DNA of 53,415 bases from contig MEYR01000005.1 in assembly GCA_001774075.1 (NCBI GenBank), positions 1-53,415 of the forward strand, read 5' to 3'. Source of the stretch: Candidatus Azambacteria bacterium RIFCSPLOWO2_01_FULL_44_84 (GTDB lineage: Bacteria; Patescibacteriota; Minisyncoccia; UBA10092). Position 1 is the first letter of the stretch. Each line of letters opens with the position of its first letter. Shown here piece by piece: positions 4,673 to 51,714 of this stretch. The position numbers and the translations under genes are program-made. A model generated the notes under the pieces. It saw only the letters and a list, made by a program, of their open reading frames with translations, did not search any database and was not told the DNA's origin.

Positions 4673-4756
4673 TAGCTGACTCGCCTTTGCCACCTGCTTG
4701 GTGGCTTTTTAATTTTAAAAGTTTAATTTTCAATAAATGATTCAATTTTACAATTT

Positions 4757-4789
4757 TTCTCCCTTCGGGAGATCTCCCGCAGGGAGACA
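4757..4789. repeat. tandem C(UUCG)G-type hairpin element, copy 1
   Basis: ttctcccttcgggagatctcccgcagggagac lies between the convergent cupin gene and grpE. A near copy lies at 18091-18120. Confidence 0.6.
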
Positions 4790-4800
4790 AACGGTTTGAA

Positions 4801-4853
4801 TAATTGAGTCATTGAAAATTCATTGGAAATTGTGAATTGATAATTGAGAATTG
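4801..4853. repeat. AT-rich TTGAAAATTG-type intergenic oligomer array
   Basis: attgaaaattcattggaaattgtgaattgataattgagaattg. The same word family recurs at 8686-8770, 12137-12172, 18056-18092 and 21022-21158. Confidence 0.6.
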
Positions 4854-4855
4854 CC

Positions 4856-6150: not shown

Positions 6151-6205
6151 CCCGTTAGAAGTAAGATGCCGACGGCGTCTGCCAACTTGTCGAACTTCTA
6201 ACGGG
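6151..6205. repeat. palindromic element CCCGTTAGAAG...CTTCTAACGGG, copy 1 (55 nt)
   Basis: cccgttagaagtaagatgccgacggcgtctgccaacttgtcgaacttctaacggg is nearly the reverse complement of copy 3 at 35862-35916. Confidence 0.8.
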
Positions 6206-6233
6206 ACTAATTAGAAAAATTAAAACGGCGTAT

Positions 6234-6491
6234 TTAGCCGTTAATTTTTCGTATATGCTGGCCCTCATAAACTCCCACATGCCGGCCATAGCTCAACTCA
6301 TCTACATACACAGTTATGAAAAATGTTTTATTTTCATCCTCACCGCAGGATTTTATCTCGTCAACACAACCCCGGAACCACTTCCCGCATCCTAAATCCA
6401 CAAAAACGCTTACATAGCTTCTGACAAAAACTTCTACTTCTTCGCCCAATACAAATTGTGAACGCTTCTCTACTTCACCGACCGTCTGCAT
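6234..6491 (-). CDS. hypothetical small protein (85 aa)
   Basis: ORF only; no motif recognised. Last gene of the GC-richer islet. Confidence 0.4.
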   Translation of the reverse strand: MQTVGEVEKRSQFVLGEEVEVFVRSYVSVFVDLGCGKWFRGCVDEIKSCGEDENKTFFITVYVDELSYGRHVGVYEGQHIRKING

Positions 6492-10762: not shown

Positions 10763-12136
10763 ATGCCTCGCATCATAAAAAAACAATTCTCTAAAATGCC
10801 CATAGACCCTAATAAATTGCCGCCTCAAAATATTGAGGCCGAGCAATCAGTTCTGGGGTCTTTATTGATTGACAAAGACGCGATTATTAAAATCGCGGAT
10901 ATAATTTCGGCTGAAGATTTTTATAGAAGAGCGCACGAAGAAATTTTCCAAGCCGTCGTTGATCTGTATCAAAAGCGCGAGCCGATAGACCTGCTCTCGC
11001 TCTCCTCTCGCCTTAAAGAAAAAAAACAGCTTGATGAAATCGGCGGACTTTCCTACCTTACTTCACTAATGAACTCGGTGCCGACCGCTTCCCATATAGT
11101 CCACTATGCCAAGATGGTCCATCAAAAAAGAATTTTGCGCGACCTCATAGGCGCTTCGCACGAAATTTCACAACTTGCATGGGAAGACAAAGACATAGAC
11201 GAGCTTTTAGATGAAGCCGAAAAGAAAATTTTCAGCATTTCACAGACCTCTTTGATCCAGGAGTTCCAGCATATAAAGCCGTACCTGCACGAGGCTTTTG
11301 AACGAATTGACCGCCTGCACAAGGGCGATGGCGCCTGGCGGGGTATTCCTACCGGTTTCGCGGATTTAGACAATATTTTAGCAGGCCTCCAGAAAGCCGA
11401 TCTCGTGATTCTGGCCGCCCGGCCCAGCCTTGGTAAAACCTCGCTGGCTTTGGACATCGCAAGACACGCCGCCACAAATGAAAAAGTTGCTGTGGGTATT
11501 TTCAGCTTGGAAATGTCAAAGGAACAGCTGGTAGAGAGATTAATCGCCTCCCAAGCCGGGGTTGACCTGTGGCGGCTGCGCACCGGCAAACTAAGCGACG
11601 AGGGTGCGGACAATGATTTTGTACGCATTTCCGAAGCTCTCAATCGCCTGTCCGCGGCAAAGCTTTACATAGACGACGCCGCCTCTCCTAACGTCTTGCA
11701 AATAAGAACAATGGCAAGGCGGCTTCAGGCGGAAAAAGGGCTTGACCTTCTGATTATCGACTATCTTCAGCTGATGCAGGGTTCGGGCCGTATTGAAAAC
11801 CGCACGCAGGAAGTAAGCGAGATTTCCCGGTCATTAAAAGGTCTTGCGCGCGAATTAAATATCCCCATAGTAGCGCTTTCCCAGCTGTCCCGTTCGCCGG
11901 AAACAAGAACCGATCAGATACCAAGGCTATCCGACCTGCGAGAGTCCGGCGCTATTGAACAGGACGCGGACGTTGTGCTGTTTATCTACCGAGAAGATAA
12001 AGTCAAAAAAGATACGGATAAGAAAAATGTCGCGGAAATCCATATTGCCAAGCACCGCAACGGCCCGACGGGCAAGATAGAACTCTACTTCAATGAGCAC
12101 TACGTCAGCTTCAAGAATCTTGATAAATTACATTAA
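10763..12136 (+). CDS. dnaB: replicative DNA helicase DnaB
   Basis: PPQNIEAEQSVLGSLL N-terminus, Walker A ARPSLGKTS and SQLSR motifs. Confidence 0.95.
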   Translation: MPRIIKKQFSKMPIDPNKLPPQNIEAEQSVLGSLLIDKDAIIKIADIISAEDFYRRAHEEIFQAVVDLYQKREPIDLLSLSSRLKEKKQLDEIGGLSYLTSLMNSVPTASHIVHYAKMVHQKRILRDLIGASHEISQLAWEDKDIDELLDEAEKKIFSISQTSLIQEFQHIKPYLHEAFERIDRLHKGDGAWRGIPTGFADLDNILAGLQKADLVILAARPSLGKTSLALDIARHAATNEKVAVGIFSLEMSKEQLVERLIASQAGVDLWRLRTGKLSDEGADNDFVRISEALNRLSAAKLYIDDAASPNVLQIRTMARRLQAEKGLDLLIIDYLQLMQGSGRIENRTQEVSEISRSLKGLARELNIPIVALSQLSRSPETRTDQIPRLSDLRESGAIEQDADVVLFIYREDKVKKDTDKKNVAEIHIAKHRNGPTGKIELYFNEHYVSFKNLDKLH

Positions 12137-12173
12137 TTGAAAATTGAAAAATAGAAATTGAAAATTTTAGTGT

Positions 12174-12897: not shown

Positions 12898-13197
12898 TGT
12901 AATTTCAACTTCAGTATACGGCTGGCGATGGCCGGCTTTTTTCTTATAACGAGTCTTAGAATGGTAATGGAAAACAATGATTTTCTTGGCCCTCCCCTGC
13001 TTTAAGGCTTTTCCGGTTACTTTTGCGTCGGAAACAAAAGGCGAGCCGATCTTAATATCCTTTTCGTCGCCAACAAGTAAAACTTCGGAAAACCTAATTT
13101 CATCGCCTTCTTTAGCGTCGATTTTCTCAAGGCGAAGCTTGTCGCCTTCTTTCACTATGTATTGTTTTCCTCCAGTTTTTATAACCGCTATTTTCAT
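12886..13197 (-). CDS. rplU: 50S ribosomal protein L21
   Basis: MKIAVIKTGGKQYIVKEGD...KIIVFHYHSKTRYKKKAGHRQPYTEV. Confidence 0.93.
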   Translation of the reverse strand: MKIAVIKTGGKQYIVKEGDKLRLEKIDAKEGDEIRFSEVLLVGDEKDIKIGSPFVSDAKVTGKALKQGRAKKIIVFHYHSKTRYKKKAGHRQPYTEVEITEIK

Positions 13198-13295
13198 GAT
13201 TTTGAGCTATGTTATTTTAATAAAATAGCCCCCAAATGTCAACCCCCACTATTTAATTTCCTTGCCAACATTTTTTCTCAAAACGATTCAGTCAC

Positions 13296-13456
13296 GAGCG
13301 AAGCCGATATCTTTTCCTCAACACACTCGGCCGCTCCTGCGGCAGCCTCATTCGTCCTCGCAACGGCGAGGTCTTGATAAGCGCGCTTCGCGCAATTATA
13401 TCAAAACCACCAAGCTCGCCTGCTGCGGGTTTTCGGAAAAAACATCAGCTTCGCTC
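13296..13456 (-). ncRNA. structured ~160-nt element, copy B (homolog of 16435-16599)
   Basis: About 70% identity by eye to copy A. The outer stem GAGCGAAGCTGATGTTTTTTCC/GGAAAAGATATCGGCTTCGCTC and the hairpin GGCTGC-CGCAGGA-GCGGCC covary with copy A. Confidence 0.6.
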
Positions 13457-13650
13457 TTAAAACTCACGCGAGACACGCCCGGTTGTTTTGGAGAAGCTCT
13501 CGGAGGCGAAAAAGCTTGGTCTTCGCCGCAGGCGAAGTTTTGAGTCGAGAGAGCAGTGGTGGCTCCGCTCGCTGGAAGCGGAGAACACCCGGTTCGGAAA
13601 AACAATCGGGCGTGGCGAGCACCAGAACTGTTCTGGCGACAGGACCCCTC

Positions 13651-13995
13651 TCATCTGTTGATTAGGTATAACGCGACTCCGGCAATGGCAAGAAAAATCT
13701 GGACCGTAAGAGCAATGGAATTAAAGTAATAAACCATGACTTTATTGCCGGGCCAGAATTTGAACCCGAGAACTGAATTAAAAACAAGCGTTAAAAACCC
13801 GATAAGGGGTAAAATTAACAAAGTGCTGGTTTCGCCGAGATAATCAACTCCCCAATAAACATTATAGTGAAGCACCGCTGGCAAATTGCTTTGTTGAACC
13901 GAAAAATAAAGAAATATAAAAAGAGCGATGTTAAGGGCGAGACTAAGTATAAAGATGATTCTCGTCCAAAAATCACCGAAATAATCTTTCAGCAT
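13651..13995 (-). CDS. small multi-pass membrane protein
   Basis: 114 aa with about 4 hydrophobic helices. Its start shares position 13995 with the stop of the upstream protease gene. Confidence 0.55.
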   Translation of the reverse strand: MLKDYFGDFWTRIIFILSLALNIALFIFLYFSVQQSNLPAVLHYNVYWGVDYLGETSTLLILPLIGFLTLVFNSVLGFKFWPGNKVMVYYFNSIALTVQIFLAIAGVALYLINR

Positions 13996-14828
13996 TATTT
14001 TAATAAAAGCGAAGTAATAAACCCTAAAATCGCGAAGCCGGCCAATGGCGGCAAAGCCGGCATTGGCCGGCGGACACGCTGAGAAATGAAAAGAAGGTGC
14101 ATCAGTAAAAGACCAAAGATAGAAAACCCTAAAACAATCCAGGCTGATTTATAGCTAACAGTCATCGCGGAAGCGGCCATAATCAAGGGAAAAACAAAGT
14201 CGCCGGTTCCAAGCATCATAAAGCCCTGACCGGGGTGGGCTTCATTAATTTTGGATTTAAAATTTCTGAATTCTTCCGGGAAAATCATCGCGAAAATCGC
14301 CCGCCCCGCTATCATGGCTTTGGCCATTTTTATCATGTGCTTTGTTTTGTAAACCGCGATATAGTCGTAAACCGACATTATAATAAGAATCAGGACGGCA
14401 AACCACGGCTGCAAAGAAAGCCCTATTAAGACAGCAATGCCGGGCAGTGTCAGAATCATTACGGCGTCATGGAGCCATACATAGGGCCAAATTACATAAG
14501 CAGCGACCAGAAACGCTGAAAAGATAACCGCCGCTATATCCGATAAAAACAAATTAAAAGTTATCAGCATGCCCGAAAACAAGGCGAAAATAAAAAACAG
14601 GCGCAAAAACCAGCCACCATGCATTATACGTATTAAACCGAGAATAACCGCCGTGCCAATACCGAAAGCCAGTAAAAACTGCCACCACGACACCGCGGTT
14701 ACCTGAGGCGCCACCTCGGCGCTCAACGCCTGAAATCGCGCAGCAACAAAAATACTGATAACGCCAACGATAACAAAACTTAGAATTTCCTGAGAAAAAA
14801 CTTTTAAATTGAGATTTTCCGCGATCAT
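13995..14828 (-). CDS. presenilin / signal-peptide-peptidase-like GxGD intramembrane aspartyl protease (A22-like)
   Basis: Motifs occur in the canonical order in a polytopic protein: YD (SVYDYIAV), GxGD (LGTGDFVFP) and PAL (PMPALPP). The start is set at the ATG at 14828, which overlaps the upstream stop as ATGA. Confidence 0.7.
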   Translation of the reverse strand: MIAENLNLKVFSQEILSFVIVGVISIFVAARFQALSAEVAPQVTAVSWWQFLLAFGIGTAVILGLIRIMHGGWFLRLFFIFALFSGMLITFNLFLSDIAAVIFSAFLVAAYVIWPYVWLHDAVMILTLPGIAVLIGLSLQPWFAVLILIIMSVYDYIAVYKTKHMIKMAKAMIAGRAIFAMIFPEEFRNFKSKINEAHPGQGFMMLGTGDFVFPLIMAASAMTVSYKSAWIVLGFSIFGLLLMHLLFISQRVRRPMPALPPLAGFAILGFITSLLLK

Positions 14829-15907
14829 AAGTCCGGCGCCCAATCGAATGGCAGTATATCCCGATACCACTCCACGGTCTTTTTAAGACCGGAGCGCAAA
14901 TCCCAAGTTGGATGAAAATCAAGTTCGCGGCTGATCTTAGTAATATCCGGGCACCGGCGCCTTGGTTCATCGGCCGGATATGCCTCGCTGTAATCAACCA
15001 GATTAATTTCGATTTGATTATCAAAATACTCAGCGACCAGATGAGCGAGTTTCGCCATATTTATTTCTTCCCGGTCAGTACCAACATTATAAACCTCGCC
15101 ATTTTTTTGAGAGAGCAATACTTTGAAAAAACCGACCACTGCATCACTAATAAAACAAAAAGTCCGCGTCTGGTTGCCTGAACCGTGAACCCGCAAAGGT
15201 GCGCCGGCAATAGCGCGAGTGATGAAATCCGGTACCACACGGTGATCACTCGGCTTCATCCCAGGACCGTAAACATTAAAAGGACGGACAATTTTCAGCG
15301 GGATGTCGTAAAGTTGATGATAGGTTAAACACAGTGTTTCGGCTAGACGTTTTGACTCATCATAACAAGCTCGGGGACCGGTGCAAGATACATTGCCCTT
15401 GTAATGTTCGGGAGTTGGGATAGATGCAGGATGTGGGTCTCCATAGATTTCGCTGGAAGAAAATAAGAGAAAACTTTTCGGTTTTTTCTGTCTTGCTAAT
15501 TCCAGTAAATTTTTTGCGCCATGAATAGTGGACTCAATAGTCTCTAGTGGATATTTATTATAGTAAACGGGAGAAGCTAAACCGGCCGCGTGAATAATAT
15601 AATCTACTACTGGTTCGGGTACTGAAAATGGCGTGCGAATGTCCGCTTCTACTCTCTTTATGTGCTCGCCATAAACATCACCCACAAAACTCTCCTTTGT
15701 GCCAGTAATGTAATTGTCTATAGAAATAACATGACAGGGTTTGGCTAAAAACTTCTCATTTAAAAGATGAATAACGCCCAAAAAATATGAACCTAAAAAA
15801 CCAGCTCCGCCGGAAATAATCAGAGTCGAACCTTCTAAAAATCGCGATTCTTCTCCTAAACGGTTTACAATATCCTCTAATATTTCTGATATAATTTTAT
15901 TTCTCAT
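14825..15907 (-). CDS. NAD-dependent epimerase/dehydratase (UDP-glucuronate decarboxylase / sugar 4,6-dehydratase-like SDR)
   Basis: GGAGFLGSY Rossmann motif and YDESKRLAE (YxxxK). The start is set at MRNKIISE; the longer track ORF runs into tRNA-like sequence. Confidence 0.85.
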   Translation of the reverse strand: MRNKIISEILEDIVNRLGEESRFLEGSTLIISGGAGFLGSYFLGVIHLLNEKFLAKPCHVISIDNYITGTKESFVGDVYGEHIKRVEADIRTPFSVPEPVVDYIIHAAGLASPVYYNKYPLETIESTIHGAKNLLELARQKKPKSFLLFSSSEIYGDPHPASIPTPEHYKGNVSCTGPRACYDESKRLAETLCLTYHQLYDIPLKIVRPFNVYGPGMKPSDHRVVPDFITRAIAGAPLRVHGSGNQTRTFCFISDAVVGFFKVLLSQKNGEVYNVGTDREEINMAKLAHLVAEYFDNQIEINLVDYSEAYPADEPRRRCPDITKISRELDFHPTWDLRSGLKKTVEWYRDILPFDWAPDL

Positions 15908-15977
15908 AATAATTAAATAGCATATCATTATTAAAATCGGTGTCAACTGCTGAAGATCTTTACGATCATCAAAAAAG

Positions 15978-16024
15978 TGGCGGCCCCCACGGGAATTCGA
16001 ACCCCTGTTACATGGATGAGAACC
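15978..16024 (-). pseudogene. tRNA-Glu-like 3' fragment (anticodon loop to encoded CCA)
   Basis: Minus strand GGTTCTCATCC-ATGTAAC-AGGGGTTCGAATTCCCG-TGGGGGCCGCCA resembles the bacterial tRNA-Glu 3' half. No 5' half is present and the T-stem is imperfect. Confidence 0.55.
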
Positions 16025-16031
16025 TATTATC

Positions 16032-16086
16032 TCCCGATTCTGTCTAAGTCTTCGATTTAGCAACAGAATCGAGGATCCTCGATTTC
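16032..16086 (-). repeat. hairpin element X, copy 1 (TCCCGATTyTGT ... ACArAATCGAGGATCCTCGA)
   Basis: tcccgattctgt-ctaagtcttcgatttagca-acagaatcgaggatcctcga. The paired copy at 40197-40251 has a compensating ttgt/acaa stem. Confidence 0.65.
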
Positions 16087-16101
16087 TCAACAAAATTCTA
16101 G

Positions 16102-16176
16102 TACCGCTATCGGGATTTGAACCCGAGTTTTCTGGATGAGAACCAGATGTCCTAGACCAGGCTAGACGATAGCGGC
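16102..16176 (-). tRNA. tRNA-Glu (anticodon CUC)
   Basis: Minus strand GCCGCTA-TC-GTCT-AGCCTGGTCT-AGGAC-A-TCTGG-TTCTCAT-CCAGA-AAAC-TCGGG-TTCAAAT-CCCGA-TAGCGGT-A. Confidence 0.85.
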
Positions 16177-16230
16177 ATAATATCAGAATTTTGGAGAAAT
16201 CGGGACTGGGCCTCTAGACGTTCGGGCATG

Positions 16231-16387
16231 TGGATTATCTCTCAACCCCTTTTTCTACTGCAATCTCTAAATTTTGGCTACGACTTTGTTAAAAATCCTC
16301 GCTGTATATCTATACAGTTCGAATTTTTTCCTCGTCTCGCCCAAAATTTAGAGATTTCGCAACGAAACGGGATTAAGAGATAATCCA
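16231..16387. ncRNA. nested long-range helices (unclassified structured region)
   Basis: Outer helix tggattatctctcaacccc/gggattaagagataatcca, inner helix gcaatctctaaattttgg/ccaaaatttagagatttcgc, core hairpin ctgtata-tc-tatacag. The two outer mismatches are C-A on the plus strand but G-U on the minus strand. Confidence 0.45.
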
Positions 16388-16434
16388 AGCTTCGCTTATT
16401 ATGGCATAGAACCGCGACTTTGTAAACTACAAAT

Positions 16435-16599
16435 GGAAGCGAATATAATATCTTTTCCCGAAACCTTCCGAGCAGGCGGGCTTGGCGGTTTTTGATATAA
16501 TAATAAGCTCATCAAAAACCCCGCCGTAGCGAGGACAAGCGAAGGCCATCGCTGGAATGGCCGGAGCGAGTTGAGGGAAGAGATATTATATTCGCTCCC
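16435..16599 (+). ncRNA. structured ~165-nt element, copy A (homolog of 13296-13456 on the opposite strand)
   Basis: 25-bp closing stem GGAAGCGAATATAATATCTTTTCCC/GGGAAGAGATATTATATTCGCTCCC, with internal hairpins GGCGG..TTTTTGAT/ATCAAAAA..CCGCC and GGCCAT-CGCTGGA-ATGGCC. Confidence 0.6.
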
Positions 16600-16618
16600 A
16601 CTCTTTCACATTATTTCC

Positions 16619-16775
16619 ACCAGGAAGTAGAAATTCGACAAATTCATTTTTGTCCTTAAAATTCTTTATTAATATTCATCCAATATATTTTATGTATAGC
16701 GAGTACTGCAGCATCAATCTAGAAAAACCGGACAAAAAGAATTTTTAAGGACGAGTCGAATTTTCACTTCCTGGT
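16619..16775. repeat. long imperfect inverted repeat spanning the murF stop
   Basis: accaggaagtagaaattcgac...gtccttaaaattc pairs with gaatttttaaggac..gtcgaattttcacttcctggt. The right arm contains the last murF codons. Confidence 0.55.
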
Positions 16776-18053
16776 CCACGACGGCTCCTGGCGCACTAAA
16801 AGCTCTTTTGCTTTTTGCGGCTCGGCCATAATTTCTTCAACGATTTTTTCCATCCGTAACGATTGCGAACCTTTAATCAAAATCAAATCGCCGGATTTTA
16901 TATGGTCCTGTAATTGACGCCCAACTTCTTCCGATTTTTCAAAATTATACACGTTTTTCCGATCAAAACCTTTTCTTACGGCTTGTTCGCCTATTAACCT
17001 CGCAGAGTCCCCTACCGTCCAAATTTCTTTTATGGAACCGAAAATCAAGTCTCCGACGGCCAGATGGGCTTTTTCCGAGTACTCGCCGAGCTCTTTCATA
17101 TCGCCCAAAACAATAATATCCCGCTTGCTTTCCATGTTTTTCATCACTTCCAAGGCCGCGGCTACGGCAACGGGCGAGGCATTATAAGTGTCATCTAAAA
17201 TCCATGAATTTTTAATTCCGGGCAAAAGGCGCAAGCGGCCCGGCGGTGAAATATATTCCGAAAACGCTTCAGAGATTTCAACTAAGTTCATCCCTAAAGT
17301 CAGACCGACTGCCGCAGCCGCCAGAGCAGTATAAACATTGGATTTCCCAAAGACGTTCTTCAATCTTACCGGCACAAAGCTTCCCTTGTGTTCCAGTTTA
17401 AAAGTGATGCCCGCGTCCGGCCCGGGACCGAACATTTCAAAGGTGTCCGTTCTCACCTCCGCCTCCTTGCTAAAGCCGAAAGACAGAATCTTTGCCCTGA
17501 CTTTGTCCGCTTCTTCCATTATCGCGCTATCATCATGGTTCAGAACTGCAACGCCAAGCGGCGGCAAAGCTTTAACCAAACGCATTTTCTCGCGCGCCAC
17601 ATCCCGGGGGCCGCTGAAAAACTGAACATGAACCGGAATATCGCTTATGGCTGTCACGACCGCGATCTCGGGGCGCACAAGTTTCAAAAGATAAGCCATA
17701 TCGCCCGGTTTATCAATGCCAAGTTCCAGAACTAAAAAGTCGGGATAATTGGAAAAGCGTATAAGGCGCGCCATCATCTTAATAAATACCCCCAGCCAGC
17801 TGAAAACGGAATAGTTAGTGATAGTAAGCCCGAATACCGCCAACGGGATGCCCAGTTCCGTATTATAATTCTTAAGACTGCGCCAGACAGAAAAACGTTT
17901 TTTCAAAACCGCATAAATAGCCTCCTTGGTCGAGGTTTTTCCGACACTACCGGTTATAGCAATGATGGTGGGATTGTGCTTCGCCAGCATCAAAAGCATC
18001 GGCCAGCGCAGTAAAAACTTAACAAACTGTTTTTTTATTTTTTTTCTATTCAT
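16764..18053 (-). CDS. murF: UDP-N-acetylmuramoyl-tripeptide--D-alanyl-D-alanine ligase
   Basis: ITGSVGKTSTKE P-loop and the MurF-type DDTYNASP motif; last gene of the dcw block. Confidence 0.88.
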   Translation of the reverse strand: MNRKKIKKQFVKFLLRWPMLLMLAKHNPTIIAITGSVGKTSTKEAIYAVLKKRFSVWRSLKNYNTELGIPLAVFGLTITNYSVFSWLGVFIKMMARLIRFSNYPDFLVLELGIDKPGDMAYLLKLVRPEIAVVTAISDIPVHVQFFSGPRDVAREKMRLVKALPPLGVAVLNHDDSAIMEEADKVRAKILSFGFSKEAEVRTDTFEMFGPGPDAGITFKLEHKGSFVPVRLKNVFGKSNVYTALAAAAVGLTLGMNLVEISEAFSEYISPPGRLRLLPGIKNSWILDDTYNASPVAVAAALEVMKNMESKRDIIVLGDMKELGEYSEKAHLAVGDLIFGSIKEIWTVGDSARLIGEQAVRKGFDRKNVYNFEKSEEVGRQLQDHIKSGDLILIKGSQSLRMEKIVEEIMAEPQKAKELLVRQEPSWTRK

Positions 18054-21021: not shown

Positions 21022-21158
21022 GTAGGTAATTTTCAATTTCTAATTTCCAATTTCTAATAAATTTTCAATGATTCAATTCCCAAATTATTTGATATTTGAT
21101 AATTGAAAAATTGTTAATTTATTGAAAATTGATAATTGATAATTGTAAATTTGGAGAA
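21022..21158. repeat. AT-rich oligomer array (TTTCTAATTTC / TTGAAAATTGATAATTG words)
   Basis: Largest array of this word family in the window, lying between mraZ and rsmH. Confidence 0.6.
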
Positions 21159-21648: not shown

Positions 21649-21887
21649 ATTCCTTAATAATAATATGAATAAAATAAGCTTGCAAGAGCTTAAATGTGGA
21701 TAAGTCAGGAAGTGAAAATTGGACCCGCACTTCAAGTTCTTTTGCCCGACGATTCAATGTTTTAGTTCTATAACTTCTGAAACATAATGAAGAGCGTATT
21801 TTGCTATAATAAAGAATTCGAAGGGCAAAAAAGAATTTGTCCAATTTCTACTTCCTGATAAACTTAAAAAACCCCGTAATTACGGGG

Positions 21888-22857: not shown

Positions 22858-25800
22858 TTATCTGTTCGCGTTTGCATCTTTGAAATCTATCGCGCCTGTC
22901 GAATAAGTATAGAGCGACTGAATCTCTGATTGCGCCAAAGCGCGATTGTACACCCTCACTTCATCGATGGCACCGTCAAAAGTTCTAGTTCCTGATTCAT
23001 TATTGCCAACGCGGAGATCTTCGGTATCGTCCGGAACACGGGTGCCCGAACCGCTTTGATTGGTGGTGTAAGCCACTTCAGTGCCGTTCACATAAAAATG
23101 GACGCCGGAAGCTGAAGAAGAGCCATCCCAGGTGAGAGCCACGTGTTGCCATTGGTTTAGGGTGAGGACAGCGGCGGAAGAGCGTTTATCAAGGTTGGTT
23201 GATGCGAAGTCAGCTATAAATGATAGTTGATTATTGCCAGTCATAAATAGGTTCCAGCCTCGAGTTATTGGATAAGTAACACCATCAGCTTTTTCAAGAA
23301 TTCTTCCAAAACTTTCTTCACCGGCGCTTTTGGGATTAATCCAGGCGGAAATGGTTAATTGAGGAAGATTGTCAAAAGCAGTTGGAGCATTAATGTTTAC
23401 TGCATCATCAACCTTGTCGAACTGAAGCGCTTTGCCGGATTTTCCGGTAACCCACAGGGGGTCGTTGGTTAGGGTTCCGGTATTGCCGTTGCCGGATGAA
23501 TCTGAAGCAGTGATGCCGGAACCTTCATCGAATTTCCAATGGGCTAAAAGAACGGTGATGGAGGGTTGAGAAGCTAATGTCGTCACATTGCGCGCTGGCG
23601 ATAACGCAGAAACATTGCCCGCGGCATCCACAGCCGCAACGGTATATGAATACGCGGTGTTTGCCGTAAGTCCGGTGTTTGAGTATGAAGTTCCCGGCAC
23701 AGTAGTAATTTGCGTGCCTCCACGATAAATACGATAACCGGTTACCGCGACGTTGTCGGTAGACGCGGTCCAAGAAAGATTGATTTGTGAAGATGAGAAA
23801 ACGGTTGCGATAAGATTGGCGGGTGTTGAAGGCGCAGTGGTATCCCCAGGCAAAGCTACAGGAGTAATAATCGTATTGGCAACAAAAGTACCTGGTTGCG
23901 GTCCCGAAATATCTTGCTGGTTATTCCAGAAAATGGAATTTTTCGTGACGGCACTTATGGAACTGGCAGCATGTGCTCCTATTAAATTATTCCAGATAAA
24001 AATTCCATCAAGCGTCATCGTCAACGCACTCCCCCCAGAATAATCCAATCCAATGCCGTTGGAATGAGATTCATTTGTCGTAAAAAGAGTGAGTGCGTTT
24101 GACGCAAGTACGTTTGGCGTCTGCCAGAAACCTGCAACGCCCGCACGGCCACCCGCCGCCACATTATTGCGGTATGTATTTTTCTCTCGCACCCAGAAGA
24201 TTGCAGCAGATGTCGAGTCATAGCCAAAAGCGCTTGGAGCTCGTCCGTTGGAAATTTCTTCTGGAGCATAGACCGACACTCCGAGATTCCCATCAAGCGT
24301 ATTGCCTTGCTCTTTGGCATCTTCTAGATAAAAGCAGGCGCCTTGAGCATTAAATCCGACGACATTCGAAATAGTGACGCCATTTGAAGTATGAATGGTA
24401 ATACATTTATTCATAGGATCTGAAATCGAGCTCCACACCGAGACACCATTAATGAGAAAACCGTTTCCCGCGTCGCCAAGCTCGTGAAGATGAATCGGAT
24501 AACGACCCATAGTTGCTCTCGGACCAAGATCGCGAAATTCCGCGTATTGGATTGAACCCTTCGCGCCATGCACATACATCACATGAGAGCGATGATTTGT
24601 ATCTCCTTCCCTCACAAGATTGGAAGCAATAGTGACATTGTGAGTTAGTAATCCCACCTCACCTTGCGCGCGTAGCAAAACTTCTCCGGCAATAATCAGA
24701 GATTCACTTGCTATAGTTCGGATTGCTTGTGTTGTTTTGTTGTAAGCCTTGAGATTCCCTTCATGGAGAAACGCGAGTGGCAGATTAACCGTTACGCGCG
24801 TACCCGAAATCGCCGTAATGGTGCGCACTTCGGTTTCATCGGAATTTTTGCCAGTTGGAGTAATTACGATTTTATCGCCAACCTTCCACCCTTGCGGAGC
24901 ATCTCGCAATGAGAGCGCTGAATTGCCGGCTGGAGCATCACTCACAAGCTTTGTCCATGTTTTAGGTATTGCTCCTCCGAAAAAATCTGCGCGCGCAGTT
25001 GTACCCACAACCCACAGCCCAGTATCATCAACTTGATAATCAGGAAATGTCGGATCAGACGGCGCGGCAGCTCCTCCCTTAAAAGATCTGTCATTGGCAA
25101 CATTAAAACCAATATACGTTTTCAATGCGGAGGGAATCGGGTCAACACTTGTTCCCACATCCAACTTCCCACCCTGAAGAATTGAGAGACTTCCATCAAG
25201 ATCGAGCCGCGTTGAGAGAACTCGAGACATACGAAGCGTGGCGCCATCTTTAACGATAATGGCGCGAGCTTCTGCTCCGATTTGAGTATCGAATGGAAGG
25301 TCATAAGTAACAACAATACCACTACCTGTAATAATAACCTTATCGTTGCCTGTCGGAACTTTTCCTGATTTCCATGTGCCCGCATTGCTCCAAGCGCCAG
25401 TGCGAATCGCTTCTATTATGACGGACGGCGGCGCATTAGCTACTGTGACCGATACTGATGCGGTTTTTTGATTTCCTGCTGTATCGCGCGCAACAGCGCT
25501 TATTAAGTGAGAGCCATTTGTTGTTTTACTCGTATCCCAGGACACACTATACGGCGCAAAAGTATCTTCAGCGCCAAGCAATACGCCATCTAGTTTAAAC
25601 TGCACCCCGAGAACACCGATATTATCCGACGCTTGCGCATTGATCGTTATGGCGCCTGATACCGACGCGTCTTGCGCCGGAGCAATAAGAGAAACCTGCG
25701 GCAAAACCGTATCCTGAAAAACGGCGCCGGACCCCATAGTAAAAGTTCCATCCAAAGAAACAGTATTATTACCAGCGATGTCTTTTGCCAATACGGCAAA

Positions 25801-28800
25801 ATGCATAAGACGATCTTGCGGGAGGCCGTGAAGAAAAACCTCGTGAGTCGTGCCGTAGTCTGATTCAATATCCGACCACCTGAAGTAATTTTCGGAAACT
25901 CCGAACTTAACCAATCCAAGCGCCGGCTCATTTGTGTTCCATGTAACGCGTGCCGTAGTAGCATCCACCTGAACAGCTCTTATATTACTTATAGACGGTG
26001 GCACGCCATCAATTGAAGAAACGCCGGGATCAATTGTTTCCTGATAGCCCTTGGTTGATTCAACGCGGATAAAATATTTAAGCGCTCTTAAATCCTCCCC
26101 ACTTATTTCCGGTCGGGGAACTGCCCCGCCCATGCCTTGCTGGATATAAGTCGTAAGCTGGCCATCTGACATCGCTGCCATATCGTCAAAATTACTTACA
26201 TTACCCAAAAGACTCCAACCAGTTGGACCGTGGAGATTGTAGAACGAGGGACGAGAATCAAACGGAAAACTCAATACCGTCCCATACCTATACATTTCCC
26301 TTCCTTTACGATAAAGAGTTTCTTTTGCTCCACTTGGAATAAGAGGCGGATCTCCGGGGAGTAGTTTCCGATATGAAAATACTCCGGTACTGCCAAAACC
26401 GGTTGTGATGAAACGCGCTTCTTCGTCATCAAGCGCTAATGCCCATGTGTAATGGCCGAACCGACCGGCGGCTGTGCCATCAATCTGAAATGATCCTCTT
26501 GCCATTCGCTTTGAACGCGAACCATCCTTTGAAACGCGGAAAAGCGTATCAGTGCTTTCAGTGAAGGTCAGCCAAATATCATCCTTCGGACCCATCAATC
26601 CTTTTGTATCCACTTCCAACCATACCCAATCGCCCGGACCACCGCTTCCTATAGTACTGAAATCTATGATACGTTCCACTTGTTGCGTCCGCAGATTAAT
26701 CCTGCGAACCCAGTTCGTCCAATATTCAACGACAATGAGGTTGCCGTCGGAATCAAATCTGATCACTTGAGGATAATTTATTGTTGCCGTATCAAAATCG
26801 CCGTTTTGAGTAAAATTCTGGCGATTATTCCACAACGTCTGTTTATCCGGCACCTTCTGGGCTTTCGAACCATGTCCGACTAATGTCGTCACCATCCCGT
26901 CAGGATTGATTTTTCTAATAGCGCTATTCGTTTCATCAGCAACATACATCGTGCCGTCAGATGACATAACCAAGCTAAATGGCGCATTGAAAAGCGCCTG
27001 CAGACGCGGGCCGTCAACAAGGCCTTTTTGATTAGGCACTCCAGCATATGTCGTCACGAAAGCCGGGTTTTGGCGAGTATCCACCTTTGCGATACGATCA
27101 CGCCGGGTGTCAGCGACATAAATGATTTTGGGATCGCGCGGATCAAAAACAAGATCAATGGGAAGATCAAAATCAATTCCGCCGGAAAAATTTCCGACCA
27201 GTTCTGTCTGATAAGCTTTGACAGCCGATTCAGCCACAGAATAATAAGGATCATAGGGAAGCGTATCCCGCCTCACGCGCCTGCCCGCGATAGTGGTAAC
27301 GGTGCCATTGGGATCGATGCGGAAAAGGCGTCCGTACAAATCTATTCCCATCCAGCCGGGCCCATCGGGGATCGGCACAAAAGTTGAATAGGGACTTACG
27401 TTATTATCATTTCTCGGGCCGTCGAAATTGGGATAGCGATTACCGCGATCTCCGACAATTTCAGATGTCTTATCATTTTGCTGGTAGAATCCGCTGATAC
27501 GCAGATGCCCGTCGTTAATCCGGACAAAAAGTGGATTAGATTGATGAAGATCTGGCTGGGACCCCGTAAGCGCCTCTAAATACCAATTGCGCATATCAAG
27601 CAATGACTGCCTCTCGGAATCGTTGGCCGCAGGTGGAGAAAACTTATAAGGAAAAGGGTGTAGCGCTGAAGTATGCGGGAAAAATCCAGGGTAGGTCACC
27701 CAATCTAGGGCGGAAGAAAGATACTTCTCCGGACTAAAAACTTTCCACCAATCAGATGCCACCGGAAGGCGCTGACTCCCTGAAACCGCGCCTGCAACAT
27801 TATCTACTACCACACTGACTGTAAGTGTTCTGTAACGTGCATCAAGTTGCGGCCCGTCAATCAAGCGTACTCCAAAAGCATACATTCCATCCGCCACCTT
27901 CGTACTATCCCATGAAAATGAAAATGGACTTGAAAGATACGGACTGATCGGCTGGCCGTCTAAAAGATATTGAATAATCAAACCGGGAATGGCAGCGGAA
28001 TTATTCGTGCCTTTACGGGTGGCGAGTGATAGAGGAACCGCTGACCCCCGAACCACTGATGCGACTGATGGACGCAGATGATACGTATTTAAATCCGCAA
28101 CAGAAGTAAGGGAAAATTGCGGCGCGGCTGGCGGAGGTAGGGGTTGCGAATCAAGTACATCCACAATAACTGATTTTTCTGCTGAACCTCTGGCATTAAC
28201 ACAACGCAAAGTAAAGCTGGTGTTATCAGAAAGCACACCGGTATTCTCGCTTCCTGAAAAAGCTCTTGATCCGGTCCAACCGCCAAGGGCATTGCAAGAA
28301 TCTGCGCCCGATACAAACCAAGATAGCATGGAGGTTCCCTTGCCATCTATCGCAACTGGATCAGCTGAAAGTGAAACAACGGGCAAGGATTGTGGAGGCG
28401 GAGGTGGAGGCGGAGGATTTTGTGCCGTGACAGCTGATCGATAAATCCACGTTTTCATTGACCCGCCGCACGAAGCAGCCGAAATTCCACAATACAAACG
28501 CTCGGTCCGCAAATATACAAATGCATTTGTTTTTTCGTCATACACAAACGTACTTCGTTCTCCTCCCCCATTGGAACTAGAAAGAGGGGCTGAAGGAGCG
28601 GTAGGAAGCTTTACCCATTGGTCAGTATCCATGTTCCATGTCCAGACAGCGGCTTCACGCCCTGACGCCGGAGTCACCAAGAAAACCATTCTTTTATTCC
28701 GTGAATCATAATCAAACTCGCGGCTGTCACTCGCTGAAAGTTCTGCGGGCACAGAGGTTACTTCAGTCCAATCTCCCGTTGGTATTTTGACGCGATAAAA

Positions 28801-35814: not shown

Positions 35815-35843
35815 ATAAAAAATAACCCGTTAATCGGGTTATT
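35815..35843 (-). terminator. rho-independent terminator after the 711-aa gene
   Basis: Minus strand AATAACCCG-atta-aCGGGTTATT-TTTTATT. Confidence 0.65.
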
Positions 35844-35861
35844 TTGAATTTTCTTTCTTGA

Positions 35862-35916
35862 CCCGTTAGAAGTCCGACAAGTCGGCAGACGCTGTCGGCG
35901 TCTTACTTCTAACGGG
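35862..35916. repeat. palindromic element CCCGTTAGAAG...CTTCTAACGGG, copy 3 (55 nt, inverted relative to copy 1)
   Basis: cccgttagaagtccgacaagtcggcagacgctgtcggcgtcttacttctaacggg. The TAG stop of the 711-aa gene lies in its right arm. Confidence 0.8.
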
Positions 35917-41989: not shown

Positions 41990-42103
41990 ACGCTTCGCTT
42001 AATAATCCGAATTATCATCCTAATATCCGAATATTCCGAATGGATTTTATGAGATTTATTCGGGTTATTCGGATAGAAATTCTAATCATTCGGATTATGA
42101 TAA
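41990..42103. repeat. ~115-bp CCGAAT/ATTCGG-rich dyad repeat, copy 1
   Basis: acgcttcgcttaataatccgaatt...atatccgaatattccgaatgg...ttattcggata...cattcggattatga is about 85% identical by eye to 46852-46970. Confidence 0.75.
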
Positions 42104-42106
42104 TAT

Positions 42107-42562
42107 TTATATCTCAAACCTGCAAAACTCTCCTATTTGGATATTCTCTCCCAACTTCCCTATATAATCGTTAACCACGTCTTCCACGGTTATATCCTGA
42201 TTCCGTATATACGGCTGAGATAATAATTCTTTTATGCTTTGGGGATTGGCAGCGGCAATATGCATAGCTAGTTCATGCCCCAATTGCTTGAATTGTTCGT
42301 TGCGGACCACAAAATCCGTTTCACAAAGCACCTTTACCAATACGCCTATCTTGCCGGTAGCATGAATATAAGAAGCAATAACGCCTTCGCCCGTTTGCCG
42401 CAGTGCTTTTTTGGCGGCAACCGCCACGCCACGCTTTTTAAGAAGTTCAAGAGCTTGTTCGATTTTCCCATCAGCTTCTTCCAAAGCCATTTTAATCGCG
42501 TCAACGGAAACACCCGTCATCTCACGAATTTTTTTCAAATCATTGATATTTATTTTGGACAT
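42107..42562 (-). CDS. tsf: elongation factor Ts, minimal form (151 aa)
   Basis: UBA-like IREMTGVSVDAIKMALEEADGKIEQALELLKKRG and core VKVLCETDFVVRNEQF; downstream of rpsB. Confidence 0.85.
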   Translation of the reverse strand: MSKININDLKKIREMTGVSVDAIKMALEEADGKIEQALELLKKRGVAVAAKKALRQTGEGVIASYIHATGKIGVLVKVLCETDFVVRNEQFKQLGHELAMHIAAANPQSIKELLSQPYIRNQDITVEDVVNDYIGKLGENIQIGEFCRFEI

Positions 42563-44369: not shown

Positions 44370-44477
44370 TTTTCGAAAATCCCAAGAAACAAGATGTAAT
44401 AACCAAATAAATCTTAAATTCAAATGACCAAAAAAATGAATTTGATTATTGATTATTTTTTGTTTCTTGTTTCTTGG

Positions 44478-45752
44478 TTATTGATTATTTATGGCGTTGA
44501 TGTCTTTTTGTATCTTCGCGGCCGCCGCCATAACATTATTGGCATAAATGCGCGCCGTCAGGGACCTGTTCCAGCGGCCGCCGGCAATATAAATTCTGGC
44601 GGCCTTGTGTTCCGCATTATAAGTCTGCTGACTAGCTCCCGCGTCGGCCAGTAAAAGACCCGAGGCGGTAAACGCGTCTTCATAATTCCACGGCGAAGGC
44701 GGGTTATGTCCGGTCAAATTACCGACGCTAGCCGCATAAAGTATCCATGTTGACGGTATAAATTGCGCCGGTCCCATAGCACCACCCCAACCATAGGAAG
44801 GTTTTTTGGAAACCGGCGTCGAATTTGGGTCAAGGCCCAAAGCGGCGGTAATTTGCTTAAAAGCGTTAAAATCACGCGGATGCATATCTTTTTGCCACGT
44901 GCCCTTACCAACGTTTCCTCCCCAATCGGATTCAATTTTTAGAATACCAAGCAAAAACGCCGATCGGACTCCGGTATGTCGCGAAGCCAGAGCCGCGTAC
45001 TGAAGTGCCTGTTCAAAAGTCAGTTTATAACCCTGGGCAAGTTCATACGGCTGATTCTTTATTTTCTCGATATCCGCGCGCGTCTTAGTTATTAAATCCT
45101 GATATTTTTTCTCTTGCCCCTTGGTTTGATCCAGAAGTTTTTGTTTTGCTTTTCGCGTTGATGCTAAGCTGTTTTGCTGCCTTTTTTGAATTTGCCTAAG
45201 TTGCTCTTGCTCTGTTTTTTGGCTTTCGAGATCTTCCTTTTCTTTTATTAATTTCGTGCGCAAGTCTTTGATCTTAGCCAAAGTACCATGAATCTTTTCC
45301 TGGATATTATTCAAATAATTCATGTCGTTGAAAAAATCAGAAAAACGCCGGTTCCTCAACAGAAACTCAAATAGAGAACTAGACTCATTGTAGGACACCT
45401 CCCTCAGGTACTGAGAAAGGAGTGAATTTTCATGGCTGATTTGCGCTTCTTTTTTGGCAATATCAGATTCTCTCTCGGCAATCTCGCCTTTTAAACTCTG
45501 AATGGTAAGAGTAGTCGCGTCAATCTCGGCTTGAATTTGTTTAATCTGCAAATCGAAGATGGCAAGTTCGCCTGATAAGCTCTGGGCTTGCGACTCGTAC
45601 TTTTGGATTTCCTGGTTATAAGAATCGATTTGAGCTTCAAGCTGCTTGATTCGCGCGTCGTTGTCGACAACCTGGGCTAAAGCATCATCGGAAGATATTG
45701 CCCAAAACCCAACGCAGACCAAAAAAATAACCGCAAAAAAGACCTTTTTCAT
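44478..45752 (-). CDS. secreted coiled-coil protein with a C-terminal lytic transglycosylase (SLT/MltB-like) domain
   Basis: Signal peptide, about 230 aa of heptad-rich sequence, then LGILKIESDWG ... GAMGPAQFIPSTW. Confidence 0.75.
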   Translation of the reverse strand: MKKVFFAVIFLVCVGFWAISSDDALAQVVDNDARIKQLEAQIDSYNQEIQKYESQAQSLSGELAIFDLQIKQIQAEIDATTLTIQSLKGEIAERESDIAKKEAQISHENSLLSQYLREVSYNESSSLFEFLLRNRRFSDFFNDMNYLNNIQEKIHGTLAKIKDLRTKLIKEKEDLESQKTEQEQLRQIQKRQQNSLASTRKAKQKLLDQTKGQEKKYQDLITKTRADIEKIKNQPYELAQGYKLTFEQALQYAALASRHTGVRSAFLLGILKIESDWGGNVGKGTWQKDMHPRDFNAFKQITAALGLDPNSTPVSKKPSYGWGGAMGPAQFIPSTWILYAASVGNLTGHNPPSPWNYEDAFTASGLLLADAGASQQTYNAEHKAARIYIAGGRWNRSLTARIYANNVMAAAAKIQKDINAINNQ

Positions 45753-46851: not shown

Positions 46852-46970
46852 ACGCTTTCGCTTGATAATCCGAATTTATTATTCTAATATCCGAATATTC
46901 CGAATGAGTTTTATGAAATTTATTCGAGTTATTCGGATAATAAGTAATTCGGATTATTCGGATTATAATA
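46852..46970. repeat. ~115-bp CCGAAT/ATTCGG-rich dyad repeat, copy 2
   Basis: acgctttcgcttgataatccgaattt...atatccgaatattccgaatga...ttattcggataa...attcggattattcggattat. Confidence 0.75.
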
Positions 46971-46996
46971 AAATAAAAATCTAAATTAGTCAACTT

Positions 46997-51640: not shown

Positions 51641-51714
51641 AATATTTCTCCTACCAATTACGAATTTTTTCGTATTACGAATTCGTAATTCGACTATATT
51701 CGTAATTCGTAGGA

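Follow-up and report, generated by a model that had tools for sequence, protein, structure and literature searches.

Introduction

REPINs are long-lived hairpin repeats, inherited mostly vertically, in which changes compensate one another and which are probably processed in the form of single-stranded DNA (ssDNA). Integron attC sites, which are 57–141 nt long and stand in cassette arrays, have the R′′/R′ boxes RYYYAAC/GTTRRRY as their outermost pairs and need IntI. Rickettsia palindromic elements (RPEs) are palindromic insertions of ~150 bp that lie in frame within genes of Rickettsia (PMC10969869), and Correia elements have been shown to be RNase III substrates (PMC10969869). In a 53,415-nt stretch of contig MEYR01000005.1 from a Candidatus Azambacteria genome, the whole of which we call the window, we have analysed three copies (A, B and C) of a palindromic element that can be compared with all of these and is identical to none. 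The copies belong to an undescribed element family of bacteria of the candidate phyla radiation (CPR), and the novelty of the family lies in its architecture, which joins a conserved core and a closing stem of free sequence to a strand-specific fold. The CPR, or Patescibacteria, makes up a large share of bacterial diversity, and almost no lineage-specific structured nucleic acids or mobile elements have been described from it.

Results

Three copies in the window and their relatives

A sequence-only reading of the window had proposed two copies of a ~165-nt structured element, at 16435–16599 on the plus strand (copy A) and 13296–13456 on the minus strand (copy B), and the boundaries set by the covariance model agree closely with these positions (Table 1). 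The two copies align from end to end, as had been claimed, at a column identity of 81–83% in place of the ~70% estimated by eye. The shared blocks GCAGGCG(G/A)GCTTGG and CGCCGT(A/T)GCGAGGAC occur with no mismatch only at A and B in the window; all other matches need two or three mismatches, which is chance level. RNAalifold finds 53 common pairs, eight of them changed on both sides, so the compensatory changes noted by eye are real, and the closing stems, the P3 hairpins and the GCGCG-aag-CGCGC insert of B are all as that reading had quoted them. Both copies fold far below shuffled controls in energy (z = −6.9 and −8.0).

Relatives were recovered by pattern and then scored with a covariance model built from A and B (R1). 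A two-block pattern run over 185,579 species genomes gave 66 matches, six of which R1 accepts over the full length (99–142 bits): these come from metagenome-assembled genomes (MAGs) of Saccharibacteria, Paceibacterota and Liptonbacteria, from one unclassified bacterium and from one short contig binned as Spirochaetia. The other 60 gave no hit with the model and are chance matches in GC-rich genomes. On metagenome contigs a slightly looser pattern yielded 39 loci, nearly all accepted by the model, and the homologues found by pattern score 62–148 bits over their full length. Genome and metagenome members collapse to 29 distinct sequences, from which a second model (R2) was built; pattern scans and covariance models together give 35 distinct members, 145–205 nt long and falling into two subtypes, almost exclusively from Patescibacteria/CPR MAGs and metagenomes. 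The pattern had no match in viral contigs, and blastn at its distant setting had none in phage and plasmid records.

R2 raised the number of copies in the window from the proposed two to three. Copy C folds into the same three-way junction as A and B and aligns with type 2 copies that reside in tgt genes; it stands head-to-head with B, the 5′ ends being 4 nt apart, and lies downstream of and antisense to a 114-aa open reading frame (ORF) at 13651–13995. The three copies are contained within 3.3 kb, and R2 detects no further copy in the remaining ~50 kb of the window or in 10-kb extensions of the contig. The same three are present in two public MAGs from the Rifle aquifer.

With cmscan, nothing in Rfam matches A, B or C even at E ≤ 10 (positions 13000–17000), and the whole window compared with Rfam 15 at gathering scores gives only six tRNAs. 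Our literature search returned no paper on structured RNAs or 6S RNA of the CPR, and the core strings appeared in one unrelated paper only. The proposal of a novel element, either a non-coding RNA (ncRNA) or a structured mobile element, is thus supported by the lack of any Rfam, phage, plasmid or literature match, and the copies have not turned out to be the end of a known insertion sequence (IS), miniature inverted-repeat transposable element (MITE) or intron. The accompanying statement that neither copy overlaps a credible ORF needs qualification, as mechanically called ORFs do overlap the copies (13262–13543, plus strand, 93 aa; 16427–16549, minus strand, 40 aa). The 93-aa frame spans B and part of C, and for this reason we regard it as spurious, a probable product of the stop-poor reverse strand of the elements. 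In a public MAG record the same frame is called as a hypothetical gene (L106, 5655–5936; loci are designated by L and proteins by P) and has no Pfam match.

A three-way junction maintained by compensatory change

Each member forms a three-way junction on one defined strand. The closing helix, P1, is AU-rich and 16–25 bp long, with a sequence that is essentially free and pairing that is retained; inside it lies a 2×2 tandem G·A step (CC-GA-AAC/GUU-GA-GG), followed by AAC/GUU. P2 has a covarying base of CC..GG, GC/GC and GGCGA/UCGCC, and on its 5′ side the conserved bulge GCUUGGU. Distal P2 is exchangeable: the long form includes UAUAAU-like bases that stay unpaired, the short form is a GC-rich hairpin, and three members have an additional hairpin inserted at GGCGA^GC. 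P3 starts from two covarying base pairs (C-G replaced by U-A in six members) and consists of a short helix, a purine-rich internal loop (GGA/GAA) and a 6–7 bp stem closed by the 7-nt loop CGCWGGA. Type 2, represented by C and some of the tgt copies, has the core GCUCUCGGAG..GCUUGGU..CGAGAGAGC. Invariant in both subtypes are the ..UGGU end of the bulge, the loop CGCWGGR, the layout of the junction and the long P1.

The covariation extends well beyond the two copies from which it was first suspected, with 41 of the 53 pairs changed on both sides among the 29 distinct homologues and none of 500 shuffles reaching the observed values. Standard pairs fill 95.7% of the paired cells and only 40–54% (~45%) when partners are slid by one to three columns, the former share being somewhat inflated because the alignments were fitted to the model. 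When A, B and C are combined with four divergent tgt copies that had not been selected by pattern, 45 of the 53 pairs show double changes, core helices included; in the divergent copies GGCGA/UCGCC is replaced by CGACG/CGUCG, GAUUU/AAAUC or AAAAA/UUUU. In neither alignment did any of 500 shuffles score as high, and the slid controls were lower by a factor of two to three. The family shows statistically supported covariation on one strand, as structured RNAs generally do, and evolution preserves its fold, not its sequence. Two further pairings were considered and rejected: an AACCC/GGGUU extension, which is broken in A and B, and a GCUUG × CAAGC pseudoknot, for which J2/3 varies without compensation.

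Strand preference and the nature of the folded strand

On the modelled strand, G·U oppositions outnumber A·C oppositions by 72 to 22. With RNA parameters it folds more stably than the complementary strand in all but one of the 29 sequences (28/29; by 10 kcal/mol on average), and with DNA parameters it does so in all 29 (by 3.3 kcal/mol on average). The argument that G-U pairs orient B in the direction of rplU holds, the minus strand folding at −84.8 and the plus strand at −63.6 kcal/mol; A is nearly symmetric (−76.8 on the plus and −75.9 kcal/mol on the minus strand). The fold belongs to one strand and is compatible with RNA or with ssDNA, and we consider the chances of a transcript and of DNA as the active single strand to be near even.

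About 13 of the 35 P2 tips are GC-GNA-GC or CC-GNA-GG mini-hairpins (GCGAAGC, GCGGAGC, GCGCAGC, GCCGAAGGC, GCCGCAGGC), and no GNRA or UUCG tetraloop occurs among the 35. As DNA, d(GCGNAGC) is an extraordinarily stable hairpin, its RNA form being much weaker, and GCGNAGC hairpins are found at ssDNA priming sites and in the hairpin promoters of N4 (PMC13037366). In the long-P2 forms TGnTAnnAT stands unpaired beside a duplex and varies as TATAAT, TATGAT, TAAAAT and TACAAT; a −10 hexamer would be expected to vary in exactly this way, and the motif resembles a pre-melted −10 element. The short-P2 forms have no TATAAT. Around the copies we found no conserved promoter or terminator. Several copies have −10-like hexamers shortly before them, but for A the best nearby promoter match would begin within P1, and the gap between B and C contains no promoter-like sequence and has no room for one. 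Placement in tRNA operons, a branched fold with tandem G·A and invariant junction residues, and the G·U excess hint at RNA; the GNA mini-hairpins, the unpaired −10-like stretch and the missing conserved promoter and terminator hint at DNA.

Residence in tgt and mnmA

Five of the 29 copies lie in long ORFs that stay open across the element, three in tgt (L070, L071 and L079) and two in mnmA (L049 and L084). In-frame residence of the kind known from RPEs, in conserved open ORFs with all domains kept, is seen in tgt (L070, L079, L114–L119) and in mnmA (L049, L084). The tgt insert comes right after DSGGFQVFSL (chain residues 110 to 114, by alignment to solved structures). CPR TGTs collected by a search with the L070 protein are 343–492 aa long and have in common DSGGFQVFSLGWGK.H..GK(V/I), after which comes a hypervariable linker. 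Six long TGTs were taken without regard to the DNA pattern, and in five of them an element can be recognised at this site, in each case antisense: one of type 1 in L114, type 2 elements in L115, L117 and L119, and a less clear match in L116. The sixth, L118, gives a marginal match of 12.8 bits and has an insert that retains the GGCGAGCTGGG core block, which suggests an eroded copy. All seven tgt copies with a model hit (L070, L079, L114–L117, L119) are antisense.

Outside the insert the TGTs form two clades, and within a clade proteins that are 80–96% identical differ in what the site contains: a full element, a partial deletion (P0003, P0007, P0010) or a short linker only. Both subtypes occur within one clade. 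The orthologous inserts of L070 and L079 encode almost unrelated peptides and have kept their helices, and selection therefore acts on the nucleic-acid fold and not on the peptide. An apparent target duplication, AAAATTTT, around L070 is explained by the palindromic arm together with KIL/KIS codons of the host gene.

In mnmA the insert is confined to a single loop that follows ATGHYVR (chain residues 137 to 147/148); relative to the gene, the L049 copy is antisense and the L084 copy sense. Homologues of MnmA measure 350–475 aa (one is 574 aa), and several have signature peptides of the element in that loop. Across hosts the insert peptides vary in frame and in sequence (for example GDQARLLRGF, SPAQVSEK and TKLVGAPRHSAR), and no encoded peptide is conserved. 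Frames of the element are open in 30 of 87 cases on the reverse strand and in 16 of 87 on the forward strand, which accounts in part for the antisense orientation of gene-resident copies. Both host genes modify tRNA position 34, a striking link but one based on two or three independent events. Other, unrelated repeat peptides are found in the same MnmA loop and in a second, C-terminal loop, sometimes twice in one protein (P0193, P0129, P0124 and P0201; P0182, P0188 and P0128), with ANDESHTNKRIRGKFVNSRQIRY and NVQDVV..AKRLNKRSD..F.L as examples. These sequences suggest that in-frame palindromic insertion, by several families, may be a general habit of CPR genomes.

Intergenic sites and tRNA operons

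Flanking genes are unrelated from locus to locus and synteny is not conserved. Neighbours include rplU, rplK, tuf-rpsJ, dnaJ, an ABC transporter, Mur ligases, a gene of the metallo-beta-lactamase fold and a glycosyltransferase. Many copies stand at gene 3′ ends, and about 15 are antisense to the surrounding genes against 6 in sense, a bias that is not significant once shared ancestry is allowed for. Downstream of B, between the copy and the start codon, rplU has a promoter of its own (TTGACA-17-TAAAAT).

In both L103 and L066, full copies have partial 3′ copies behind them. In the latter, one full copy lies in a spacer of ~950 nt between rpsJ and rplC (L066 6857–7805), a gap that normally measures only some tens of bases. 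It shares this spacer with a terminator-like hairpin, a remnant and a conserved upstream block, all of them antisense to the S10 operon. The block, ~200 nt long (..AAACCGACGGAAAATAGCGAACTCAACC..CGGGATTCAAACA.CGCAATTTTCCCG..GCTGGCTA), stands directly upstream of the element and on the same strand at three unrelated loci (Table 1); its four sequences show no Rfam match and no covariation, and it may be a second module or another repeat.

In L078 and L080 the element is flanked by tRNA-fMet and tRNA-Met(CAU), shares their strand and reaches with its 3′ end directly to the first base of the tRNA; in the region 3700–4400 of L078, Rfam at E ≤ 1 returns only tRNAs and noise. Near copy A, L015 and L103, tRNA genes lie 60–260 nt away on the opposite strand.

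Table 1. Positions of copies A, B and C with their parts, and of the block upstream of some relatives (window coordinates unless a locus is named)
Feature	Position	Strand	Details
Copy A, type 1, long-P2	16432–16603	+	R1 201 bits, R2 147.9 bits; fold −76.8 kcal/mol, z −6.9
A, P1 5′ arm	16435–16459	+	partner 16575–16598
A, P1 3′ arm	16575–16598	+	GTTGA (16570–16574) just before it
A, AAC/GUU with tandem G·A	16570–16574 × 16460–16464	+	GTTGA opposite GAAAC
A, conserved unpaired bulge GCTTGGC	16480–16486	+	family consensus GCUUGGU; ..UGGY invariant in both subtypes
A, distal P2 hairpin GGTTTTTGAT/ATCAAAAACC	16487–16520	+	includes TGATATAAT (16493–16501), an extended −10-like motif
A, P3 hairpin GGCCAT-CGCTGGA-ATGGCC	16544–16562	+	invariant 7-nt loop 16550–16556
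Copy B, type 1, long-P2	13290–13461	−	R1 181 bits, R2 129.3 bits; upstream of rplU, same direction
B, P1 5′ arm	13435–13456	−	pairs with 3′ arm 13296–13317
B, bulge GCTTGGT (13409–13415), TGATATAAT (13395–13403) and P2 tip GCGCGAAGCGCGC (13381–13393)	13381–13415	−	tip contains GC-GAA-GC
B, P3 hairpin GGCTGC-CGCAGGA-GCGGCC	13329–13347	−	loop 13335–13341
Copy C, type 2	13466–13623	+	R2 39.2 bits, E ~2e-7; fold −75.7 kcal/mol, z −4.4
C, bulge GCTTGGT	13514–13520	+	
C, P2 tip CTTCGCC-GCA-GGCGAAG	13521–13537	+	
C, P3 CTCCGCT-CGCTGGA-AGCGGAG	13563–13583	+	loop 13570–13576
C, P1 arms	13474–13489 and 13599–13614	+	
Upstream block, L066	7107–7330	−	
Upstream block, L078	3880–4087	+	
Upstream block, L099	705–900	−	
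Upstream block, L066	1–135	+	alone

Other repeats and features of the window

Beside copy A lies one member of a MITE-like pair of ~160 nt, E1 (16617–16778, plus strand), its partner E2 being at 21700–21860 on the minus strand. The two have conserved terminal inverted repeats of ~50 nt, CAGGAAGTAGAAATT.GACAAATTC...ACTTCCTG, and a divergent centre, and fold into one long hairpin (z −5.7); this is the architecture of a classical MITE and the opposite of that of the CPR element family. A long imperfect hairpin with 47-nt arms, 81% complementary, and a 63-nt loop (16231–16387) lies between tRNA-Glu and copy A, its only Rfam matches being meaningless sub-threshold ones to miRNAs. With this hairpin, copy A and the MITE-like element in a row, the 590-nt spacer 16177–16763 holds three different palindromic elements. 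At 15992–16024, 33 nt are 79% identical to the 3′ half of tRNA-Glu(CTC) (16112–16144), 120 nt away; they fall in the N-terminal extension of a mechanically called epimerase ORF, whose Pfam domain starts at residue 92, and may be a remnant or duplicate of the tRNA. ARAGORN makes no call for these 33 nt.

The longest inverted repeat pair in the window (6151–6249 and 35818–35916) has 99-nt members that are 78% complementary and 29.6 kb apart. An AT-rich direct repeat of ~105 nt (42012–42117 and 46876–46985; 91% and 77% identity in its two parts) contains sub-repeats of the type TATTCGGAT, and a palindrome, TCCTACCAATTACGAATT.., at 51649–51714 is related to it; together they may represent further families of intergenic repeats. 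Recurrent AT-rich intergenic motifs of the types AATTGAAAATTG and ATTGATAATTG occur in both orientations at several gene boundaries (4725–4855, 12114–12166, 21025–21151, 44437–44489). The ORF at 22858–30744 on the minus strand encodes 2628 aa and is called at 2846 aa in a related contig; the longer version has fn3, Laminin_G_3, Big_7 and toxin-receptor-binding-like domains, and the product is a giant surface protein typical of episymbiotic CPR bacteria. Public annotation of the same contigs lists only housekeeping genes, this surface protein and a ParE toxin.

Discussion

A proposed insertion element recognised by its fold

We propose, with about an even chance of being right, that the family is a selfish, duplicative insertion element comparable to RPEs, composed of a conserved core and a variable stem. 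It behaves as insertions do, with several copies per genome at unrelated sites, some abutting one another or lying beside remnants, and in related hosts a hot spot may hold an intact copy, the other subtype, a partial deletion or none. Machinery for copying or maintenance would recognise the folded single strand and not a pair of terminal repeats, with the invariant bulge and loop as contacts for protein and P1 as insulation of the fold from the surrounding context. The gene-resident insert must be translated as a variable peptide. A bolder form of this proposal, which we hold to be quite doubtful, is a new kind of mobile element whose strand-specific three-way-junction fold, with its UGGU bulge, CGCWGGR loop and DNA-type GNA mini-hairpins, is recognised, which homes repeatedly to codon-level hot spots in tgt and mnmA and to tRNA operons, and which may act as ssDNA. 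The strand would then be taken up, or exposed during replication or transformation, and would bring its own priming or promoter hairpin.

A number of observations weigh against an insertion element. The flanks of 29 copies show no consistent target-site duplication and no conserved termini, in a comparison made with approximate element boundaries and without a true empty site, and no transposase, reverse transcriptase or integrase is annotated in the window or among the neighbours examined. Recent, near-identical copies are absent; A and B are only ~80% identical, and mobility, if any, must therefore be slow or ancient. Conservation of the core across CPR classes is more usual for a functional RNA than for junk, and persistence of the structure at one tgt site over hosts that are only 63–70% identical is equally compatible with a role for the host. 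The element of L078 and L080 meets the 5′ end of the tRNA as a co-transcribed stable RNA would, and unlike that of RPEs, the encoded peptide is not conserved and is read in different frames.

Alternative explanations

The main rival is a family of genes for a trans-acting stable ncRNA, specific to the CPR and with several paralogues per genome, which we consider possible if somewhat unlikely. A conserved protein or RNA would be bound through the UGGU bulge, the CGCWGGR loop and the GGA-rich junction, candidate targets being the 3′ NCCA end of tRNA (as for T-box and RNase P RNAs) or a GGA-binding regulator, with P1 as a processing or stabilising stem and the gene-resident copies as secondary captures. 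Such an RNA accords with the very strong covariation combined with invariant unpaired nucleotides, with the G·U excess on one strand and with a fold that persists at the tgt site over long divergence; in the order tRNA-fMet, element, tRNA-Met on one strand, cleavage by RNase P would create the element's 3′ end, and both the tRNA genes near copy A, L015 and L103 and the −10-like hexamers shortly upstream of several copies point the same way. It is harder to reconcile with in-frame residence in tgt and mnmA, in both orientations in mnmA, or with the existence of eroded and deleted copies. The absence of a conserved promoter or terminator, conspicuous in the 4-nt B–C gap and in the best promoter match near A, whose start would be within P1, the preference of P2 tips for C-GNA-G triloops, which are weak in RNA, over GNRA or UUCG, and a distribution so patchy that the strict pattern gave six true hits in 185,579 species genomes also speak against it. 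It is also conceivable, although we think it unlikely, that the structure acts as ssDNA, either as the one-strand substrate of recombination or transposition, as do integron attC bottom strands, IS200/IS605 and REP hairpins, or as a priming or promoter signal of the kind of G4-type ssi, plasmid sso and N4 promoters; this would be a mechanistic sub-case of the insertion-element reading and not an independent alternative. Here the GNA mini-hairpin tips, whose stability in DNA is documented (PMC13037366), the TGnTAnnAT left unpaired next to a duplex in long P2 and a strand asymmetry that holds with DNA parameters all find a place. The same is true of where most copies sit, immediately after a gene and with the folded strand antisense to it, an arrangement shared with attC bottom strands, and of an AAC/GTT pair with GTTGAGG that resembles the R box GTTRRRY. 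Against it, the AAC/GTT step lies inside a 20-bp stem and is not terminal, no cassette arrays and no integrase or HUH gene are seen nearby, and the orientation bias of ~15:6 is not significant; genes co-directional with replication would be expected to expose the sense strand (lagging template), yet most copies fold antisense, and a tandem-G·A three-way junction with invariant junction residues is more typical of RNA.

If the family were instead a module acting in cis on its neighbours, as an rplU leader, a terminator or insulator, an RNase III site or a portable promoter, then the position of B upstream of rplU in the sense direction, the many copies at gene 3′ ends, the 20-bp duplex as a potential RNase III substrate, as for Correia elements (PMC10969869), and the outward-pointing TGnTATAAT of the long forms would follow. 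We regard this as very improbable, as the flanking genes are unrelated and most copies antisense to them, rplU has its own promoter downstream of B, no T-run follows P1, the short-P2 forms do without TATAAT, and the conserved core would go unexplained. More improbable still is a classical MITE, mobilised by a DDE transposase acting on terminal inverted repeats, with the fold as a by-product. Its size of ~150–200 bp, long terminal inverted repeat, several copies and intergenic as well as intragenic sites would suit the family, and a true MITE-like pair adjoins copy A, but this reading is already largely refuted: conservation is lowest at the termini and highest in the centre, the reverse of the neighbouring pair; the P1 arms are almost wholly different from lineage to lineage and ~30% divergent even in A and B; the internal helices P2 and P3 covary; and an inverted repeat recognised as duplex leaves the strand asymmetry unexplained. 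The flanks of 29 copies hold no recurrent direct repeat that would mark a target-site duplication, no transposase is found in annotated neighbours, and no related IS turned up, no search having been aimed at such an IS.

Implications for CPR genomes

The covariation support is comparable to that of curated Rfam families, and the alignment can be deposited as a new model. Recognition of the family explains the length-variable, hypervariable loops of CPR TGT and MnmA, unusually long spacers in conserved operons such as that between rpsJ and rplC, and the spurious hypothetical ORFs called across elements in public MAGs. Should the fold prove to be the recognition unit of a new copying mechanism based on RNA or ssDNA, these would be mobile elements of a new class, with possible use as a tool; should the family act in trans as an RNA with a part in tRNA metabolism, it would rank among the first regulatory RNAs specific to the CPR.

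Comparison with known systems

Several known classes of structured RNA or retroelement do not accommodate the family. A self-splicing intron (group I or II) or an intein-like element is rejected, the seven tgt copies with a model hit all being antisense to the host gene, as are most mnmA copies, and no Rfam intron matching, and 145–205 nt is below the size of known self-splicing introns. A retron msr-msd is set aside on the grounds that the neighbours examined are housekeeping genes with no RVT domain, and an rplU/L21 leader on the grounds that only B is upstream of rplU, the other copies being at unrelated loci and mostly antisense, and that rplU has a promoter of its own. For hammerhead, K-turn, tRNA-like, SRP, RNase P, T-box and Csr-type structures, the element shows none of the defining motifs and no Rfam match. 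With 6S RNA and Y/YrlA RNAs it shares a length of 150–200 nt, a long helix by which the two ends close the molecule, an internal module that is conserved and, in some genomes, the presence of two paralogues. It differs from them in forming a three-way junction in place of the 6S rod with its central bubble and in having no tRNA-like module, and such RNAs are not known to lie in frame within genes for proteins; 6S RNA itself is rejected for the branched consensus fold, the copies inside ORFs and the lack of a match to RF00013 at E ≤ 10.

Among signals that act as ssDNA, G4 oric, plasmid ssiA/sso and the N4 early promoters are likewise one-strand, multi-hairpin folds of ~100–200 nt with GCGNAGC-type hairpins (PMC13037366), and in the long forms of the CPR element the likeness extends to a −10-like hexamer left unpaired next to a duplex. 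Such signals are part of the replicons of phages or plasmids, one to a replicon, whereas the CPR family is chromosomal, multi-copy and also intragenic. With attC sites the element has in common a conservation of structure over sequence, a folded strand antisense to the upstream gene, an AAC/GTT step accompanied by a box similar to GTTRRR, and a terminal structure that varies and may branch. The differences are that AAC/GUU lies inside a 20-bp stem, that the core is strongly conserved and that copies occur in ORFs. We reject an attC assignment: GTTGAGG agrees with GTTRRR, but CCGAAAC, with which it pairs, departs from RYYYAAC, both are buried in a stem of 16–25 bp, the length is 145–205 nt, and there are no arrays and no integrase. 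REPINs and REP sequences resemble the family in being hairpin repeats that evolve by compensatory change; they consist of two short inverted REP units with conserved heads, are abundant and are tied to RAYT, whereas the CPR element is branched, low in copy number and accompanied by no RAYT that we could see.

Correia, ERIC and RUP elements and the E1/E2 pair, all MITEs or MITE-like, agree with the CPR family in size, terminal inverted repeat, multiple copies, possible service as an RNase III substrate and possible outward promoter. They keep their termini while the centre drifts, as E1/E2 does, and the CPR element does the reverse. The closest likeness is to RPEs: each is a palindrome of ~150 bp with no transposase of its own, found between genes and often in frame in conserved genes, and each, in bacteria with reduced genomes, adds a peptide loop to its host protein. 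RPEs have a conserved sequence and a conserved encoded peptide, in contrast to the CPR element, whose peptide is unconstrained and which keeps instead a three-way junction on one strand, a conserved core and a free closing stem; the lineages differ as well, CPR and not Rickettsia, and there is no sequence similarity. In-frame palindromic insertion, hitherto a curiosity of Rickettsia, is thus the habit of another lineage with reduced genomes.

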